A program made the position numbers and the translations under genes. The notes beneath the pieces are model-generated. The model worked only from the letters and a program-made list of their open reading frames with translations, did no database searches and was not told the DNA's origin. A stretch of 64,000 bases of DNA from an uncultured Eubacteriales bacterium (GTDB lineage: Bacteria > Actinomycetota > Coriobacteriia > Anaerosomatales > JAAXUF01), in the NCBI GenBank assembly GCA_964521195.1, contig CAZFRE010000001.1:334317-398316 (forward strand), in the 5' to 3' direction. Each line of letters opens with the position of its first letter. Position 1 is the stretch's first letter. This document shows, piece by piece, positions 2,970 through 33,642 of this stretch.

Positions 2970-4010
2970 TCACTCACGTACCAGCGACACGTCGTCGACG
3001 TACGCGGAGCTACCCGCGCTCACCACGCCCGATGCATCGACACTGCTCGCGCCCGCGAGCAGGACGCTGACGCGTGCGAGGACGGCACCGTTGGGGGCGG
3101 CACCCGCGACGCCCAGCCGAGCGAACGAACTTGCGCCGACTCCGGCGGACGCGCCGGTGGTGCTCGTCTCGGCGAGTGATCGGCCGGACTCGTCGAGGTA
3201 GGAGAGGCGAAGTTCGACACCCTCGGGTGCGTAGCCGGTCATCGCCCAAGCTGCCGCGCGGTATGAGGTCCCGGCAACGACGCTCGTCTCCTGCGACAGC
3301 TCGGTCCGGCCGCCGGGGTCAGCGTCGGGGTTGAGCAGCTTGAGTGAGTTGCGAGCGGTGCGGTATGTCTTCTTGGCGTGCTTGGTCCGCGTCTCGTCCC
3401 ACTGCTCGTTCGCCGTCCACCACACCGGTTTCTCGGGAGCGCTGCTCCAGCTGCGTGCCCACGTGTTGAACGAGCCGTTGCGCAGCAGATTCGAGGGTGC
3501 CGGGCTGTTCTTGATGCGGTCGAACCGAGCCGGCACGTACCCGAAGTCGAGATCGTCGCGCAGCCGGTGGATGCGGCACACCGCGACCTTGCCGTTGCCG
3601 GACTCGTAGGCAACGTAGTAGGTGTGCTCGGGGTCGAGCCAGCCGTAGAACAGCCGGATGTGGTACCCGCGCTTGAGCATCGCGTCGCCCGGCTTGAGCT
3701 CAGAGGACTTGATGCGGTGGGCGACATTGCGGAACGAGCGAGTCGACCACGACGTGCCGGTCTTCCAGCACATCGACACGTAGCCCGAGCAGTCCGTCCG
3801 GTAGCCGGCGTGGTACTTCGACTGGCTATAGCCCACGGGCGAGTCGACCCAGCGCTGGGCGCGAGCGAGCACGTCGTTGCGCGTGATCGCGGATGCCGGC
3901 GCCGCGCATGAGAGCGCGATGGCGCACGCGAGTACGAGTGTGCGCCCGACCGGCGGGCGTCCACGCCGCGTCCGGGCTGTCTTCGTCGAAGCGATGGTGA
4001 CTGTGTCCAT
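2970..4010 (-). CDS. NlpC/P60-like cell-wall hydrolase fused to a C-terminal carbohydrate-binding-like beta-sandwich
   Basis: Signal peptide. Cys nucleophile context YRTDCSGYVSMCW followed by HIRLFYGW. The C-terminal half (LLRNGSFNTW...YVDDVSLV) resembles CBM4/9-type modules. GGAGG lies 10 nt upstream of the ATG at 4010. Confidence 0.65.
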   Translation of the reverse strand: MDTVTIASTKTARTRRGRPPVGRTLVLACAIALSCAAPASAITRNDVLARAQRWVDSPVGYSQSKYHAGYRTDCSGYVSMCWKTGTSWSTRSFRNVAHRIKSSELKPGDAMLKRGYHIRLFYGWLDPEHTYYVAYESGNGKVAVCRIHRLRDDLDFGYVPARFDRIKNSPAPSNLLRNGSFNTWARSWSSAPEKPVWWTANEQWDETRTKHAKKTYRTARNSLKLLNPDADPGGRTELSQETSVVAGTSYRAAAWAMTGYAPEGVELRLSYLDESGRSLAETSTTGASAGVGASSFARLGVAGAAPNGAVLARVSVLLAGASSVDASGVVSAGSSAYVDDVSLVRE

Positions 4011-28898: not shown

Positions 28899-28926
28899 TT
28901 GACTTCGCGCGTCAAACGCATACCAT
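28899..28926 (+). promoter_or_regulatory. candidate sigma-70-type promoter for the nrdD leader
   Basis: TTGACT (28899-28904), a 16-nt spacer, then TACCAT (28921-28926), just upstream of the riboswitch. Confidence 0.4.
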
Positions 28927-28949
28927 ATGCTGTACCACGGTTCGCCAGA

Positions 28950-29118
28950 CCACCATATCTGGTGCTAAGAGGGAAGCCGGTGCGCCAACGCGGCAACGCC
29001 GGCGCTGCCCCCGCAACTGTAGACGGAGAGCCGCTGTCGACCACCGCCACTGGCGCGCAAGTGCTGGGAAGGCCCGACAGCCGCACTGACCCGCAAGCCA
29101 GTAGACCTGCCGTGGCGC
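28950..29118 (+). promoter_or_regulatory. cobalamin (B12) riboswitch upstream of nrdD
   Basis: Conserved blocks read directly: AGAGGGAAGCCGGTG (28968), GCCCCCGCAACTGTA (29007), B12 box GCCACTGG (29046), GGGAAGGC (29066), AGCCAGTAGACCTGCC (29096). Confidence 0.85.
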
Positions 29119-29226
29119 ACGAGCAATGTATCGCCAGGGCGGGGTGTCCCGGTGGCTTGCAGGGGGAGCGTCGACCGTCGCCTGCGCCAGCCGCAGACCA
29201 CCCGGACCTTGCAGAGGAGGACGGGT

Positions 29227-31251
29227 ATGGCAGCGCAGGGCATCTCGGCACCATCGGGCATCATCACTCGCGGCGGCCAGATCACGCCGTTTGAGCTTGA
29301 GAAGATCCGCTCGGCGATCGAGCGCGCGGGCAAGGCCACCAACGAGTTCGACGGGGACGAGGCCGACCTGCTTGCCAAGCAGGCGTTCAAGGTGCTCGCG
29401 CACCGCTTCGCCGACGCGCCGCCGCACATCGAGCAGATCCAGGACGTCGTCGAGCAGGTGCTGATCAGCGCCAACCACTTCGCGACGGCCCGTGCCTACA
29501 TCGTCTACCGAGAGCAGCGCGCCCGCCTGCGCGAGGACAAGCGCACCGTCGTCGAGGTCGAGAGCTCGATGAACGAGTACCTGTCGCGGGCCGACTGGCG
29601 GGTCAACGCCAACGCGAACCAGGGCTACTCGCTCGGCGGGCTGATCCTGAACGTGTCGGGCAAGGTCGTCGCGAACTACTGGCTCTCGCACGTCTACCCG
29701 CGCGAGGTCGGTCAGGCGCACCGCGACGGCGACGTCCACATCCACGACCTCGACATGCTCGCCGGCTACTGCGCGGGCTGGTCGCTGCGCACGCTGCTCA
29801 ACGAGGGCCTCAACGGCGTGCCCGGCAAGATCGAGTCGGGTCCCCCCAAGCACCTGTCGAGCGCCGTGGGCCAGATCGTGAACTTCCTCGGCACGCTGCA
29901 GAACGAGTGGGCTGGCGCGCAAGCGTTCAGCTCGTTCGACACGTACATGGCCGCGTTCGTGCGCAAGGACTCGCTGTCCTACGACGACGTGCGCCAGTCG
30001 ATCCAGGAGCTCGTCTACAACCTCAACGTCCCCTCGCGGTGGGGCACGCAGACGCCGTTCACGAACCTCACCTTTGACTGGACGTGCCCGGACGACCTCA
30101 AGGATGAGTACCCGATCATCGGCGGAGAGATCTGCGACTTCACCTACGGCGAGCTGCAGGCCGAGATGGACATGATCAACCGCGCCTACATCGAGGTCAT
30201 GACCGCGGGCGACGCCAAGGGCCGCGTCTTCACGTTCCCGATCCCGACGTACAACATCACGCCCGAGTTCCCCTGGGAGTCCGAGAACGCCGCGCTGCTC
30301 TTCGAGATGACGGCGAAGTACGGGCTTCCGTACTTCCAGAACTTCCTGAACTCCGAGCTCAAGCCGAACATGGTGCGCTCGATGTGCTGCCGCCTGCAGC
30401 TCGACCTCACCGAGCTGCTCAAGCGCGGCAACGGCCTCTTCGGCTCCGCCGAGCAGACCGGGTCACTCGGCGTCGTGACCATCAACTGCGCCCGTCTCGG
30501 CCACCTGTACGCGGGCAACGAGACGGCGCTGTATGCGGCGCTCGACACGCTGCTCGAGCTCTCGCGCACCTCGCTCGAGCTCAAACGCAAGGTCATCCAG
30601 CACCACATCGACGGCGGGCTGTTCCCGTACACCAAGCGCTACCTCGGCACGCTGCGCAACCACTTCTCGACGATCGGGGTCAACGGCCTCAACGAGATGG
30701 TGCGCAACTTCACCGGCGACGCGCACGACATCACGACGCCGGAAGGCCACGCGATGGCGGTACGCTTCCTCGACCACGTGCGCGAGCAGATCACGCGCTT
30801 CCAGGAGGAGACCGGGCACCTCTACAACCTTGAGGCCACGCCCGCGGAGGGCACCACGTACCGCTTCGCCCGTGAGGACAAGAAGCGCTACCCGGAGATC
30901 CTGCAGGCCGGCACGGCCGACAACCCGTACTACACCAACTCTTCGCAGCTGCCGGCTGGCTTCACCGACGACCCCTTCGAGGCGCTCTCGCGCCAGGAGG
31001 AGCTGCAGCGCAAGTACACCGGCGGCACCGTGCTGCACCTGTACATGGGCGAGCGGGTCTCCTCGGCGGAGGCGTGCAAGAAGCTCGTGAAGCGCTCGCT
31101 CGAGAACTTCCGCCTGCCCTACATCACGATCACCCCGACGTTCTCGGTCTGCCCCGTCCACGGCTATCTCGCCGGTGAGCACGAGTACTGTCCCGTCTGC
31201 GACGAGGAGATCGCCGAGAAGAAGCGGCTCGAAGCCGCGTCATGCTGCTGA
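29227..31251 (+). CDS. nrdD: anaerobic ribonucleoside-triphosphate reductase, large part (lacks the glycyl-radical loop)
   Basis: ATP-cone-like N-terminus (ITPFELEKIRSAIERA). Class III RNR core. C-terminal Zn site CPVH...CPVC. The ORF stops 17 codons after CPVC, with no RxxGY motif. Confidence 0.85.
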   Translation: MAAQGISAPSGIITRGGQITPFELEKIRSAIERAGKATNEFDGDEADLLAKQAFKVLAHRFADAPPHIEQIQDVVEQVLISANHFATARAYIVYREQRARLREDKRTVVEVESSMNEYLSRADWRVNANANQGYSLGGLILNVSGKVVANYWLSHVYPREVGQAHRDGDVHIHDLDMLAGYCAGWSLRTLLNEGLNGVPGKIESGPPKHLSSAVGQIVNFLGTLQNEWAGAQAFSSFDTYMAAFVRKDSLSYDDVRQSIQELVYNLNVPSRWGTQTPFTNLTFDWTCPDDLKDEYPIIGGEICDFTYGELQAEMDMINRAYIEVMTAGDAKGRVFTFPIPTYNITPEFPWESENAALLFEMTAKYGLPYFQNFLNSELKPNMVRSMCCRLQLDLTELLKRGNGLFGSAEQTGSLGVVTINCARLGHLYAGNETALYAALDTLLELSRTSLELKRKVIQHHIDGGLFPYTKRYLGTLRNHFSTIGVNGLNEMVRNFTGDAHDITTPEGHAMAVRFLDHVREQITRFQEETGHLYNLEATPAEGTTYRFAREDKKRYPEILQAGTADNPYYTNSSQLPAGFTDDPFEALSRQEELQRKYTGGTVLHLYMGERVSSAEACKKLVKRSLENFRLPYITITPTFSVCPVHGYLAGEHEYCPVCDEEIAEKKRLEAASCC

Positions 31252-31295
31252 CCCGCACGCGTTCATCCCGCACGCCCGCCACGAAAGGACCCGTC

Positions 31296-31487
31296 ATGAG
31301 CCACACCGACGACACCGCCCCCGAACTGCAGCTCCAGCCCGTCCTCTCCGATGAGGAGCGCCAGCCCTGTGAGATCTGGACGCGCGTGATGGGCTACCAC
31401 CGCCCGGTCGCGTCGTTCAACGCCGGCAAGAAGGGCGAATTCGCCGAGCGCACCTGCTTCACCGAGGACCGTGCCGAGCTCAACTAG
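31296..31487 (+). CDS. stand-alone NrdD glycyl-radical domain (63 aa)
   Basis: CEIWTRVMGYHRPVASFNAGKKGEFAER matches the class III RNR C-terminal glycyl-radical consensus (..R..GY.RPV...N.GK..EF..R). It is in a different frame from nrdD. Confidence 0.65.
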   Translation: MSHTDDTAPELQLQPVLSDEERQPCEIWTRVMGYHRPVASFNAGKKGEFAERTCFTEDRAELN

Positions 31488-32232: not shown

Positions 32233-32339
32233 CTCTCGGCACCTGGCGGCATTGTCGGCGAGTGCGCGAGGTCCCGACCTGCGGTGCTGGCGTCGTGAGG
32301 TTCGGCTCGGCTAGACTCGCAGCGTTCACAACAGAACAG

Positions 32340-32470
32340 GCGTCATTCGGTGCCCGGGAGCGCGCAAGCGGCCTCGGGAGAATAGGGAACCCGGTGAGAG
32401 TCCGGGACGGTACCCGCCACTGTGAGCGCCGCGATGACGCGGCGTGGAGTCAGGAGACCTGCCGAGTGAT
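32340..32470 (+). promoter_or_regulatory. cobalamin (B12) riboswitch upstream of btuF-like transporter operon
   Basis: AATAGGGAACCCGGTGAGAGTCCGGGAC (32381), GGTACCCGCCACTGTGA (32409, B12 box), AGTCAGGAGACCTGCC (32448). Confidence 0.9.
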
Positions 32471-32568
32471 GCGCGACGCGGCCTTCGAGGATAGAGGCCG
32501 GCTCGCGGTGCCCGGCGATGCGACTCCAACGGCCGGCTCCCCGAACCGCTCCGCTGCACACTCGAAAG

Positions 32569-32607
32569 CCCGCTCGCCTCGGTACGTCACAGGCGGCGGG
32601 TTTTCTC
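32569..32607 (+). terminator. candidate riboswitch expression-platform terminator
   Basis: cccgc(t)cgcc ...13-nt loop... ggcggcggg followed by TTTTCTC. Located between the aptamer and the btuF start. Confidence 0.55.
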
Positions 32608-32652
32608 ATGTCAGGGGCGCGTCATGACCGCCCCGTAGCAAGAGGAGGACGC

Positions 32653-33642
32653 ATGACCTGCACCACGCGCACGACCCGCACCGACCGGCCCACGCGCCGG
32701 GCCCGCCCGCGCATCGCGCTAGCGCTCGCGGCCGCGGCGCTCGCCGCCGCCGCGCTCGCAGGCTGCTCAGGCGCTGCGCCCGCGCCGCCCGCGCCCGCCG
32801 AGGCGCCCGCGCCCGCCGCAGCATTCCCGGTCACGATCACCGACGACGCGAGCCAGTCCGTCACAATCGAGACGGAGCCGCAGCGCATCGTCTCGCTCGC
32901 GCCGGCGAACACCGAGATCGCATTCGCGCTCGGCCTGGGCGACAAGGTCGTCGGCGTCACGACGTTCGACGACTACCCGGCCGAGGTGGCCGGAATCGCC
33001 AAGGTCGGCGACTTCACGACCCCGAACTTCGAGGCGATCGCCGCGGCCAAGCCCGACCTCGTGCTTGCGACGACCGGCGTGCAGGCCGACGCTATCGCCA
33101 AGCTCAAGGAACTCGGCGCCACCGTGATCGCGATCGACCCGCAGAGCCTCGAGGGTGTGTATACCGACATCGAGCGCGTCGGTCAGGCGACCGGCACTTC
33201 CGAGAAGGCGGCCGAGGTCGTCGGCGGCATGAAGGCCGAGGTCGCAGCGGTTCAGAAGGCGGTTGAGGGCACCGAGGCCGTCACCGCGTTCGTCGAGATC
33301 GCCCAAAACCCGCTCTATACCGTCGGCTCGGGCACGCTCATCGACGAGCTGCTGACGCTCGCAGGTGGCACCAACGTGGTGACCGAGCCGAGCTATGTCG
33401 CCTACTCCTCCGAGCACGTCATCAAGGCCGACCCGCAGGTCTACCTCGCGACGAAGGGCTCGATGAGCGACCCGGCCGCACTTGCCAAGCGCGCCGGCTT
33501 CGCCAAGCTCTCGGCGGTCAAGAACGACCGCGTCTACATTCTCGACGACAACTGGGTGTCGCGGCCGGGTCCGCGCGTGGTACTGGGCCTCAAGCAGATC
33601 GCGGCTGCGCTGCACCCCGGCGCGGTCGACGCCCCGCAGTAG
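32653..33642 (+). CDS. cobalamin/siderophore-type ABC substrate-binding lipoprotein (BtuF-like)
   Basis: ATG with GAGGAGGA upstream. Lipobox LAGC. PRIVSLAPANTEI.FALGLGDKVVGVT pattern. B12 riboswitch upstream. Confidence 0.8.
   Translation: MTCTTRTTRTDRPTRRARPRIALALAAAALAAAALAGCSGAAPAPPAPAEAPAPAAAFPVTITDDASQSVTIETEPQRIVSLAPANTEIAFALGLGDKVVGVTTFDDYPAEVAGIAKVGDFTTPNFEAIAAAKPDLVLATTGVQADAIAKLKELGATVIAIDPQSLEGVYTDIERVGQATGTSEKAAEVVGGMKAEVAAVQKAVEGTEAVTAFVEIAQNPLYTVGSGTLIDELLTLAGGTNVVTEPSYVAYSSEHVIKADPQVYLATKGSMSDPAALAKRAGFAKLSAVKNDRVYILDDNWVSRPGPRVVLGLKQIAAALHPGAVDAPQ

Follow-up and report, generated by a model that had tools for sequence, protein, structure and literature searches.

An anaerobic ribonucleotide reductase that is probably split by nature, with its radical glycine on a separate 63-residue polypeptide

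Background

Must the radical glycine of an anaerobic ribonucleotide reductase (RNR) be part of the polypeptide that forms the catalytic barrel? The question is raised by a 64,000-nt stretch of contig CAZFRE010000001.1 (G+C 67.7%), from an uncultured bacterium of the Coriobacteriia, which was analysed as a whole and is called the window here. In it, the nrdD gene of a class III RNR stops short of the glycyl-radical loop, and the loop is found in a 63-aa open reading frame (ORF), the small ORF, between nrdD and the activase gene nrdG. Is this nrdD broken, is it rescued during translation, or is the enzyme made of two chains? The comparisons described below argue strongly for the last of these. 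The locus very probably encodes a naturally split class III RNR, an obligate enzyme of two polypeptides in which a 7-kDa radical subunit acts in trans and is perhaps exchangeable.

In all characterised glycyl-radical enzymes, to our knowledge, the radical glycine is on the catalytic chain. Glycyl-radical enzymes with small accessory chains exist, such as benzylsuccinate synthase (alpha-beta-gamma); they keep the radical glycine on the large catalytic subunit, and in the window it belongs to the small one. The canonical class III RNRs of phage T4, Escherichia coli, Thermotoga maritima (4COI/4U3E) and Prevotella copri (8P23) share with the window the ATP-cone, the barrel, the finger loop, the zinc (Zn) ribbon, the glycine-loop motif RVxGY.RP...N.GK and the adjacent NrdG, and presumably the chemistry also. 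They differ in that here the chain is broken between the Zn ribbon and the glycine loop, the glycine lies on a separately started 63-aa protein, and the C-terminus of the large subunit becomes free, as a tail whose last two residues in this clade are Cys-Cys.

Results and Discussion

The large subunit

The nrdD ORF ends ...CPVCDEEIAEKKRLEAASCC, followed by TGA at 31249-31251, 16 residues past the Zn ribbon. It stands in the following arrangement.

28921..29128, + strand: cobalamin riboswitch in the 5' leader of the nrdD operon (Rfam RF00174, 118.7 bits, E = 3.7e-29, full length)
29227..31251, + strand: nrdD, large (alpha) subunit, 674 aa, with ATP-cone, ten-stranded barrel, double-Cys finger loop and Zn ribbon, without glycyl-radical loop
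30385..30390, + strand: finger-loop Cys387-Cys388 in RSMCCRLQ (residues 384-391); RSMCCRL is present in 120 of the 120 closest homologues
31150..31200, + strand: Zn ribbon, Cys642-x2-His645 ... Cys655-x2-Cys658, invariant columns that align to the Zn sites of T. maritima and P. copri
31201..31248, + strand: C-terminal tail of alpha, DEEIAEKKRLEAASCC, ending in vicinal Cys673-Cys674 (31243-31248)
31252..31295, + strand: intergenic spacer, 44 nt, with a Shine-Dalgarno (SD) sequence GAAAGGA at 31283-31289; aligned as DNA with loci L089, L090 and L001
31296..31487, + strand: gene of the putative small radical subunit, 63 aa, covering Pfam NRDD positions 531-561 of 562
31368..31370, + strand: Cys25 codon of the small ORF, invariant in cellular small subunits
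31392..31394, + strand: Gly33 codon, predicted radical glycine, by homology via the natural fusion P0350
31471..32232, + strand: nrdG, activase (radical SAM), with a GTG start at 31471 and an overlap of 17 nt with the small ORF

The match of the large ORF to NCBIfam NF006126 (1129 bits; cut-off 548) covers profile positions 4-656 of 684 only, and that to Pfam NRDD (E = 2e-175) positions 2-534 of 562. This agrees with a preliminary description of the window, in which nrdD was said to stop at the TGA past the Zn ribbon and before any glycyl-radical motif. The ORF also matches the Pfam ATP-cone (E = 3e-21) and TIGR02487 (470 bits; cut-off 326), and its matches among PDB sequences are the NrdD proteins of T. 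maritima, P. copri and T4. Aligned to T. maritima NrdD (4COI) it covers residues 103-611 of 651, the last part being CPVCGKA. The catalytic barrel, the finger-loop cysteines and the C-terminal Zn ribbon of a class III RNR are thus found on the large subunit; RVxGY is absent from the barrel's own polypeptide, and the system as a whole still has every element.

The same protein is present in the databases (P0241, 100% identity, 674 aa, start ATG 29227). Its 120 closest homologues (P0241-P0360) are of 660-711 aa and 81-100% identity, and this range holds even for Coriobacteriia against Alphaproteobacteria (Magnetospirillum, Rhodocista). All but one of the 120 end 12-21 residues past the Zn-ribbon CxxC and have no RVxGY glycine motif. 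C642, H645, C655 and C658 of the Zn ribbon are invariant in the alignment. A search with the C-terminal 183 aa of NrdD returned chiefly partial proteins. The double-cysteine finger-loop type of NrdD has been discussed elsewhere (10.1101/2022.04.23.489257).

The putative small radical protein

The glycyl-radical motif had been placed by the preliminary description in an ORF of another frame with an ATG at 31296, and this is where it is found, as RVMGYHRPV with Gly33. The frame, which was said to be open from 31242, is in fact open from 31179 and encodes CEIWTRVMGYHRPVASFNAGKKGEFAER. An ATG at 31242 arises by accident where the codons TCA and TGC adjoin, and close relatives lack it; the true start of the small ORF is the ATG at 31296, with the SD sequence ahead of it. 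No second NrdD is present in the window, and a search of all six frames found no RVxGY motif in it other than that of the small ORF.

The small ORF matches Pfam NRDD at E = 3.8e-07 (29.6 bits; cut-off 26.2) and positions 649-682 of 684 of NF006126, which is the tail missing from the large ORF. In Pfam and NCBIfam its only profile matches are to NrdD models, and no match to the pyruvate formate-lyase (PFL) type of glycyl-radical domain was obtained. By these matches the small protein is of the NrdD family and not of the PFL/GrcA family. It has 3210 database homologues, the best 120 of which are all stand-alone proteins of 48-74 aa, and stand-alone homologues match the tail of the NrdD profile at E values down to 9e-32, well outside what chance would give. 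An exhaustive profile search of 1.84 billion representatives gave 3836 clusters (50% identity) at E <= 1e-3 and 940 at E <= 1e-10, and the best 150 clusters are all of 54-109 aa. Against PDB sequences the small-protein profile gave nothing at E <= 1.

Among 33 diverse small-protein sequences 27 columns are invariant, and the shared core is ERQPCE[IV]WTRVMGYHRPV.SFN.GK.GE..ER. The protein of the window has a variable N-terminus of ~20 residues followed by the invariant core ERQPCEIWTRVMGYHRPV.SFN.GK.GEF.ER. Cys25, eight residues ahead of the radical glycine, is invariant in the 33 cellular small subunits; its position is Val/Ile in the NrdD of T. maritima and P. copri and has become Val/Thr in a few phage orphans (L119, L124, L125, L129).

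The predicted radical glycine and the place of the break

Three natural fusions of the two chains are present in the clade, each with a different junction.

P0350: ...C..C-DEERTPCEVWTRVMGY...
L085: ...CPQCEALGERQPCEIW...
L060: ...CPKCDAEKQAALPEGSVLAEEDRQPCEVW...

Five of seven candidate fused loci were discounted, as an alternative frame is open there through GC-rich DNA. The alignment of P0350 is collinear, reaching residue 641 of 651 in T. maritima NrdD (CPVCGKAK--VDEYMRIVGYLVPVSAFNKER) and taking in the radical glycine of P. copri NrdD; RVMGY corresponds in it to RITGY in P. copri and RIVGY in T. maritima. The radical residue of P. copri NrdD is Gly711 (PMC11226230), and with this alignment Gly33 of the small ORF is by homology the radical glycine. 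The break between the genes falls past the Zn site and ahead of the buried loop, within what PMC11226230 names the glycyl-radical domain. That study describes this domain as highly mobile, which makes a non-covalent version plausible.

In L060 and L085 the core is 80-84% identical to that of split neighbours, 83% being typical between one split protein and another, and the junction of L060 keeps remnants of both the large tail and the small N-terminus. This suggests that L060 and L085 are secondary re-fusions. The motif DEE occurs twice, once directly following the CxxC in the large tail and once directly preceding RQPCE in the small protein, and P0350 reads like a deletion between these two copies. 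The split state is kept in 174 of 176 cores, or ~98% of the clade.

The junction

The nearest independent assemblies (L089 and L090) have NrdD proteins 96% and 94% identical to that of the window, split at the same residue. Their junction consists of a TAG stop and a spacer of ~20 nt; that of the window has TGA and is 24 nt longer. These 24 nt hold the direct repeat CCCGCACGC (31252-31260, 31267-31275), leave the frame offset unchanged and are probably a small duplication. In L089 itself (GCA_013334745.1, 3526-3800) the small ORF is uncalled and nrdG has been over-extended across it to 276 aa, which illustrates how annotation can lose the radical subunit. In L001 the small ORF is in frame behind TAA. 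An actinobacterium, Rhodopseudomonas palustris BisB18 and Diaphorobacter all have an nrdD of 670-673 aa, a small ORF of 61-64 aa and nrdG, in that order; their junction stops are TAA, TAG and TGA, respectively, each followed by an AAGGAG-like site and ATG. The preliminary description had proposed to look in orthologues for the same stop and frame offset: the split is indeed shared, and what varies between relatives is the stop codon and the length of the spacer. The junction could be measured in 68 loci, with the following result.

nrdD stop codon: TGA 34, TAA 25, TAG 9
Frame of the small ORF relative to nrdD (0, +1, +2): 19, 20, 29 (chi-square p = 0.26 against uniform)
Gap from the nrdD stop to the small-ORF start: -4 to 221 nt, median 30 (-4 is the ATGA overlap, six loci)
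Start codon of the small ORF: ATG, 68/68
SD-like motif before the small ORF: 67/68

Could nrdD really be continuous, and the break a sequencing or assembly indel or the mark of a fresh pseudogene? One missing base in 31179-31251 would join both frames, and the spacer of the window does have the repeat-bearing insertion that its relatives lack. However, two independent assemblies share the split with another stop and another spacer, which effectively excludes a sequencing artefact or pseudogene; nearly all the closest large subunits end at the same point, the same layout recurs across phyla, and the small ORF, with an SD and an ATG to itself, has a core that is invariant across phyla. The chance that this interpretation is right is close to nil. 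Is the full-length enzyme instead made by recoding, with a programmed -1/+2 frameshift or read-through of the stop yielding a fused NrdD and the small ORF never translated alone? The frames of nrdD and the small ORF do overlap over 31179-31251, and in 19 of the 68 loci the small ORF lies in frame past a single stop. Against this, no slippery XXXYYYZ heptamer is present within 31179-31251, the use of the three relative frames does not depart from uniform, all three stop codons serve, gaps extend to 221 nt, ATG is universal and an SD motif nearly so. The inter-ORF sequence is not conserved, even among close relatives, and orphan copies of the small gene exist without an upstream nrdD. Recoding, which the preliminary description had also considered, is thus very improbable. 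Selenocysteine insertion or read-through at TGA was rejected because TAA and TAG serve in other loci, and an intein or trans-splicing for want of the motifs and because pieces of this size are too small. The first suggestion of that description, a two-piece NrdD with a stand-alone radical subunit, draws support from the conserved split, from the SD and ATG of the small ORF and from the glycine-less partners.

Distribution of the split operon

With one genome per species, the layout nrdD, small ORF, nrdG gives at least 600 pattern matches. Both the large subunit and NrdG are nearby in 70 of 80 cellular loci. The small ORF occurs in 161 plasmid or chromid records (Ralstonia solanacearum 132, Bradyrhizobium 7, Cupriavidus 5, Paracoccus 4, and others), and the three-gene layout was seen directly in the DNA of Cupriavidus necator H16 pHG1, Paracoccus denitrificans and Cupriavidus metallidurans CH34. 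Pseudomonas aeruginosa PA1920 is presumably of 675 aa, the size of the truncated form. RefSeq annotates on pHG1 a 676-aa 'ribonucleoside triphosphate reductase', a 66-aa coding sequence named nrdD, which is the small ORF H16_RS32675, and the activase. The genome paper of CH34 gives NrdDG as Rmet_5137 and Rmet_5139 and passes over the intervening gene (PMC2864759); Rmet_5138 would then be the small ORF, and the CH34 DNA itself shows the layout. A passage of the same paper states, after Siedow 1999, that without added B12 C. necator H16 depends on the nrdDG locus of pHG1 for its anaerobic, denitrifying growth (PMC2864759). A locus of this layout thus works in vivo, which is at most indirect evidence for glycyl-radical formation and NTP reduction by its products.

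Large subunits of Coriobacteriia, Alphaproteobacteria and Betaproteobacteria are 81-96% identical, which is unusually high between phyla. This suggests that the whole split operon has spread horizontally in recent time.

The product of nrdG is a TIGR02495 protein, NrdG2 (203 bits; cut-off 131), with a Pfam Radical_SAM match at E = 1.4e-16. The overlap of the small ORF with the start of nrdG, reported in the preliminary description, amounts to 17 nt and is called in L001 and in L003 of R. palustris as well; nrdG is probably translationally coupled to the small ORF.

Of the 119 closest relatives, 53 have a large subunit with a terminal Cys-Cys, against 5 of 72 other, mostly proteobacterial, loci. 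In class I and II RNRs, redox-active C-terminal cysteine pairs shuttle reducing equivalents. The free C-terminus of the large subunit is possible only because of the split, and by analogy its Cys-Cys tail could, speculatively, act as such a shuttle.

Orphan copies in phages and cells

Relatives of the small protein occur on 324 IMG/VR viral contigs; among GenBank phages a search with the small protein gave zero matches. The best 80 of the 324 viral loci were analysed for orphan copies. Neither a large subunit nor NrdG lies within 3 kb in 74 of the 80, or within 10 kb in 72. The orphans, on phage and prophage contigs among loci L092-L248, comprise 58 distinct peptides, 49-89 aa long. Core and glycine are retained in every one, and nearly all are preceded by an SD. 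The G+C content of the phage orphan loci ranges from 33% to 70%. The neighbours, read in genomes unrelated to one another, are genuine phage genes: tail proteins, an integrase (E = 9e-63) and an excisionase in L093 (small ORF 2980-3171), a tape-measure protein in L121 (small ORF 2995-3174), a helicase, a replication initiator and a large terminase in L131 (small ORF near 3000), and an integrase in L097. Eight phage contigs also carry a large subunit, directly upstream of the small ORF in six and ~2.6 kb downstream in two, and the junction of the split layout was read directly in two phage loci, L104 and L140.

Copies are also found alone in cells. In Magnetospirillum fulvum (L058, 3138-3650) one lies between an ScfR-type regulator with a 4HBT thioesterase and the class I genes nrdAB, and in Sutterella (L021, near 3500) one adjoins an IS605-family OrfB/TnpB gene. 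The retention of an orphan gene with its catalytic core intact is sensible only if its product partners, in trans, a large subunit that the host makes and that lacks the glycine. From this we infer, by sequence, that the small protein can act in trans.

Some further features of these loci were noted. The ScfR-type regulator and the thioesterase also border the split operon in L003 and L005. In L167 and L169 (near 3001-3189) the small ORF stops after ...CEIWTRL, ahead of the glycine, and these may be decayed copies. The L093 protein (2980-3168) matches PHROG family phrog_4132, of unknown function (E = 1.6e-06, positions 115-155 of 179), so a phage protein family with this motif exists without functional annotation.

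A two-chain mechanism and its alternatives

How would such an enzyme work? The three genes nrdD, small ORF and nrdG form one operon behind the cobalamin riboswitch, and the small ORF has a ribosome-binding site of its own. ATP-cone, Zn ribbon and catalytic barrel, the last with the cysteine finger loop, come with the 674-aa chain, and the 63-aa chain brings the Gly33 loop together with the C-terminal tail that follows the loop in an ordinary NrdD. By homology, NrdG would abstract hydrogen from Gly33 of the small chain, whose loop would enter the large subunit's barrel beside Cys387/Cys388, and catalysis would then proceed as in a single-chain NrdD. The gene structure and its conservation, the separate translation signals, the homology of each part and the orphan copies are seen directly in the sequences; complex formation, activation on the small chain and its exchange or repair are all deduced from comparison of sequences. 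With the radical site on a separate 7-kDa chain, it could be supplied in trans and replaced; oxygen would destroy the small chain only, and phages with the small gene alone could feed small protein to the host large subunit.

A more far-reaching form of this proposal may be envisaged, in which the small chain is a cartridge: an autonomous glycyl-radical protein that is activated by NrdG while free, docks reversibly into a barrel without glycine, is alone replaced after cleavage by oxygen, serves temperate and lytic phages as an auxiliary metabolic gene that complements the large subunit of the host and sustains deoxyribonucleoside triphosphates during infection, and works with a Cys-Cys tail that acts as a shuttle. 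This is a tentative idea, to which we give somewhat less than even credence.

GrcA/YfiD of E. coli and Y06I of phage T4 are likewise small stand-alone proteins with an RVxGY loop and a variable or disordered N-terminus, they are activated by the cognate radical-SAM activase, and phage-encoded versions exist there (Y06I, PMC8683613) as well as here. The protein of the window differs in being of the Pfam NRDD family and half the size. It is also the sole source of the glycine in its operon, and its operon partner never has a glycine domain of its own to be rescued. YfiD and T4 Y06I, both for PFL, are the only validated spare-part radical proteins, and the authors of that work speculate that other glycyl-radical enzymes may have spare parts (PMC8683613). 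The likeness to GrcA/YfiD drawn in the preliminary description therefore holds as an analogy, and the phage orphans support a 'replaceable part'; it fails in that the family is another one and the protein is an obligate subunit in its operon. Another RNR chain is split over adjacent genes, that of class II NrdJa/NrdJb of Pseudomonas aeruginosa, with the C-terminal module second (PMC9669993, PMC4860495). NrdJa/NrdJb differ in being B12-dependent, in having no glycyl radical and in that the split-off part is a large module, IscU-like with a zinc finger.

Is the small protein, on the precedent of GrcA/YfiD and Y06I, a spare part only, with the working NrdD fused elsewhere and the truncated nrdD a relic? 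Such a relic would hardly be expected to stay 81-100% identical among 120 homologues from different phyla, to keep finger loop and Zn ribbon intact and to be linked to nrdG always. The window holds no other NrdD or glycine motif, and the pHG1 locus, of the same layout, is itself required for anaerobic growth according to the passage cited above. Since 119 of the 120 neighbouring large subunits lack the glycine, the small protein of the operon would be an obligate subunit and not a back-up, and the spare-part explanation appears highly unlikely. Neutral gene fission is a more serious competitor. Here the two chains would assemble once, co-translationally, and act as an ordinary NrdD, without exchange, repair or special activation. 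Linkage of the genes is tight, with frequent overlaps (ATGA in six loci), natural re-fusions at ordinary identity occur among the split relatives, and the split is present in strict as well as facultative anaerobes. The retention of the split in ~98% of the clade over several phyla, however, argues against drift alone, and phages and some bacteria keep orphans with the catalytic core intact. We regard neutral fission as unlikely, while granting it some weight.

Several observations count against the split enzyme as proposed, with its small chain acting in trans and perhaps exchangeable. The advantage of exchange or repair is a purely inferential one. The presence of the split in strict anaerobes (Coriobacteriia, Sutterella) means that it does not track oxygen exposure cleanly, and the rare re-fused forms indicate that fusion is viable too. 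The orphan calls in phages refer to +/-10 kb, and the presence of a glycine-less NrdD in the hosts of these phages is presumed. An AlphaFold model of the joined chains of the window had a mean predicted local distance difference test score (pLDDT) of 66.7, and below 35 in the small part, values too low to say anything of docking, from a shallow set of homologues of the large subunit only, >80% identical.

Cobalamin riboswitches and neighbouring genes

The riboswitch in the leader is also present before the split nrdD in L001, L089, L090 and L003 of R. palustris; in L005 and L087 the leader was checked for a cobalamin riboswitch and none was seen. A second cobalamin riboswitch of the window (32331-32480) lies upstream of a periplasmic-binding-protein gene (32518-33642), which is BtuF-like as judged from the Peripla_BP_2 match of its neighbour in L089. 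The two riboswitches (28921-29128 and 32331-32480) fit a repression by B12 of a B12-independent reductase.

Conclusions

The small ORF and its partners appear to be a new architectural variant of a known enzyme class, widespread and already in the databases as an unremarked coding sequence. A stand-alone radical subunit for an RNR had been called novel in the preliminary description. In the searchable literature, including the principal reviews on the evolution and structure of RNRs and on glycyl-radical enzymes, we found no description of a class III RNR of two polypeptides, although Siedow 1999, Torrents 2005 and Wei 2014 may mention the small ORF, and the only split RNR met there was class II NrdJa/NrdJb; the separate coding sequence as such is not new, being annotated by RefSeq on pHG1.

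If two chains are the normal state of a class III RNR, an essential enzyme would gain a new kind of subunit architecture. As a natural 7-kDa substrate, the small chain would allow one to ask how an activase gains access to a loop which the active enzyme keeps buried, and oxygen damage and its repair would become directly open to experiment. Among the members of the clade are model denitrifiers and pathogens: C. necator H16, P. denitrificans, R. solanacearum and Bradyrhizobium. With the radical site on the small ORF, cloning 'nrdD and nrdG' alone would omit it. The orphan copies suggest, in addition, a previously unrecognised auxiliary metabolic gene of phages.

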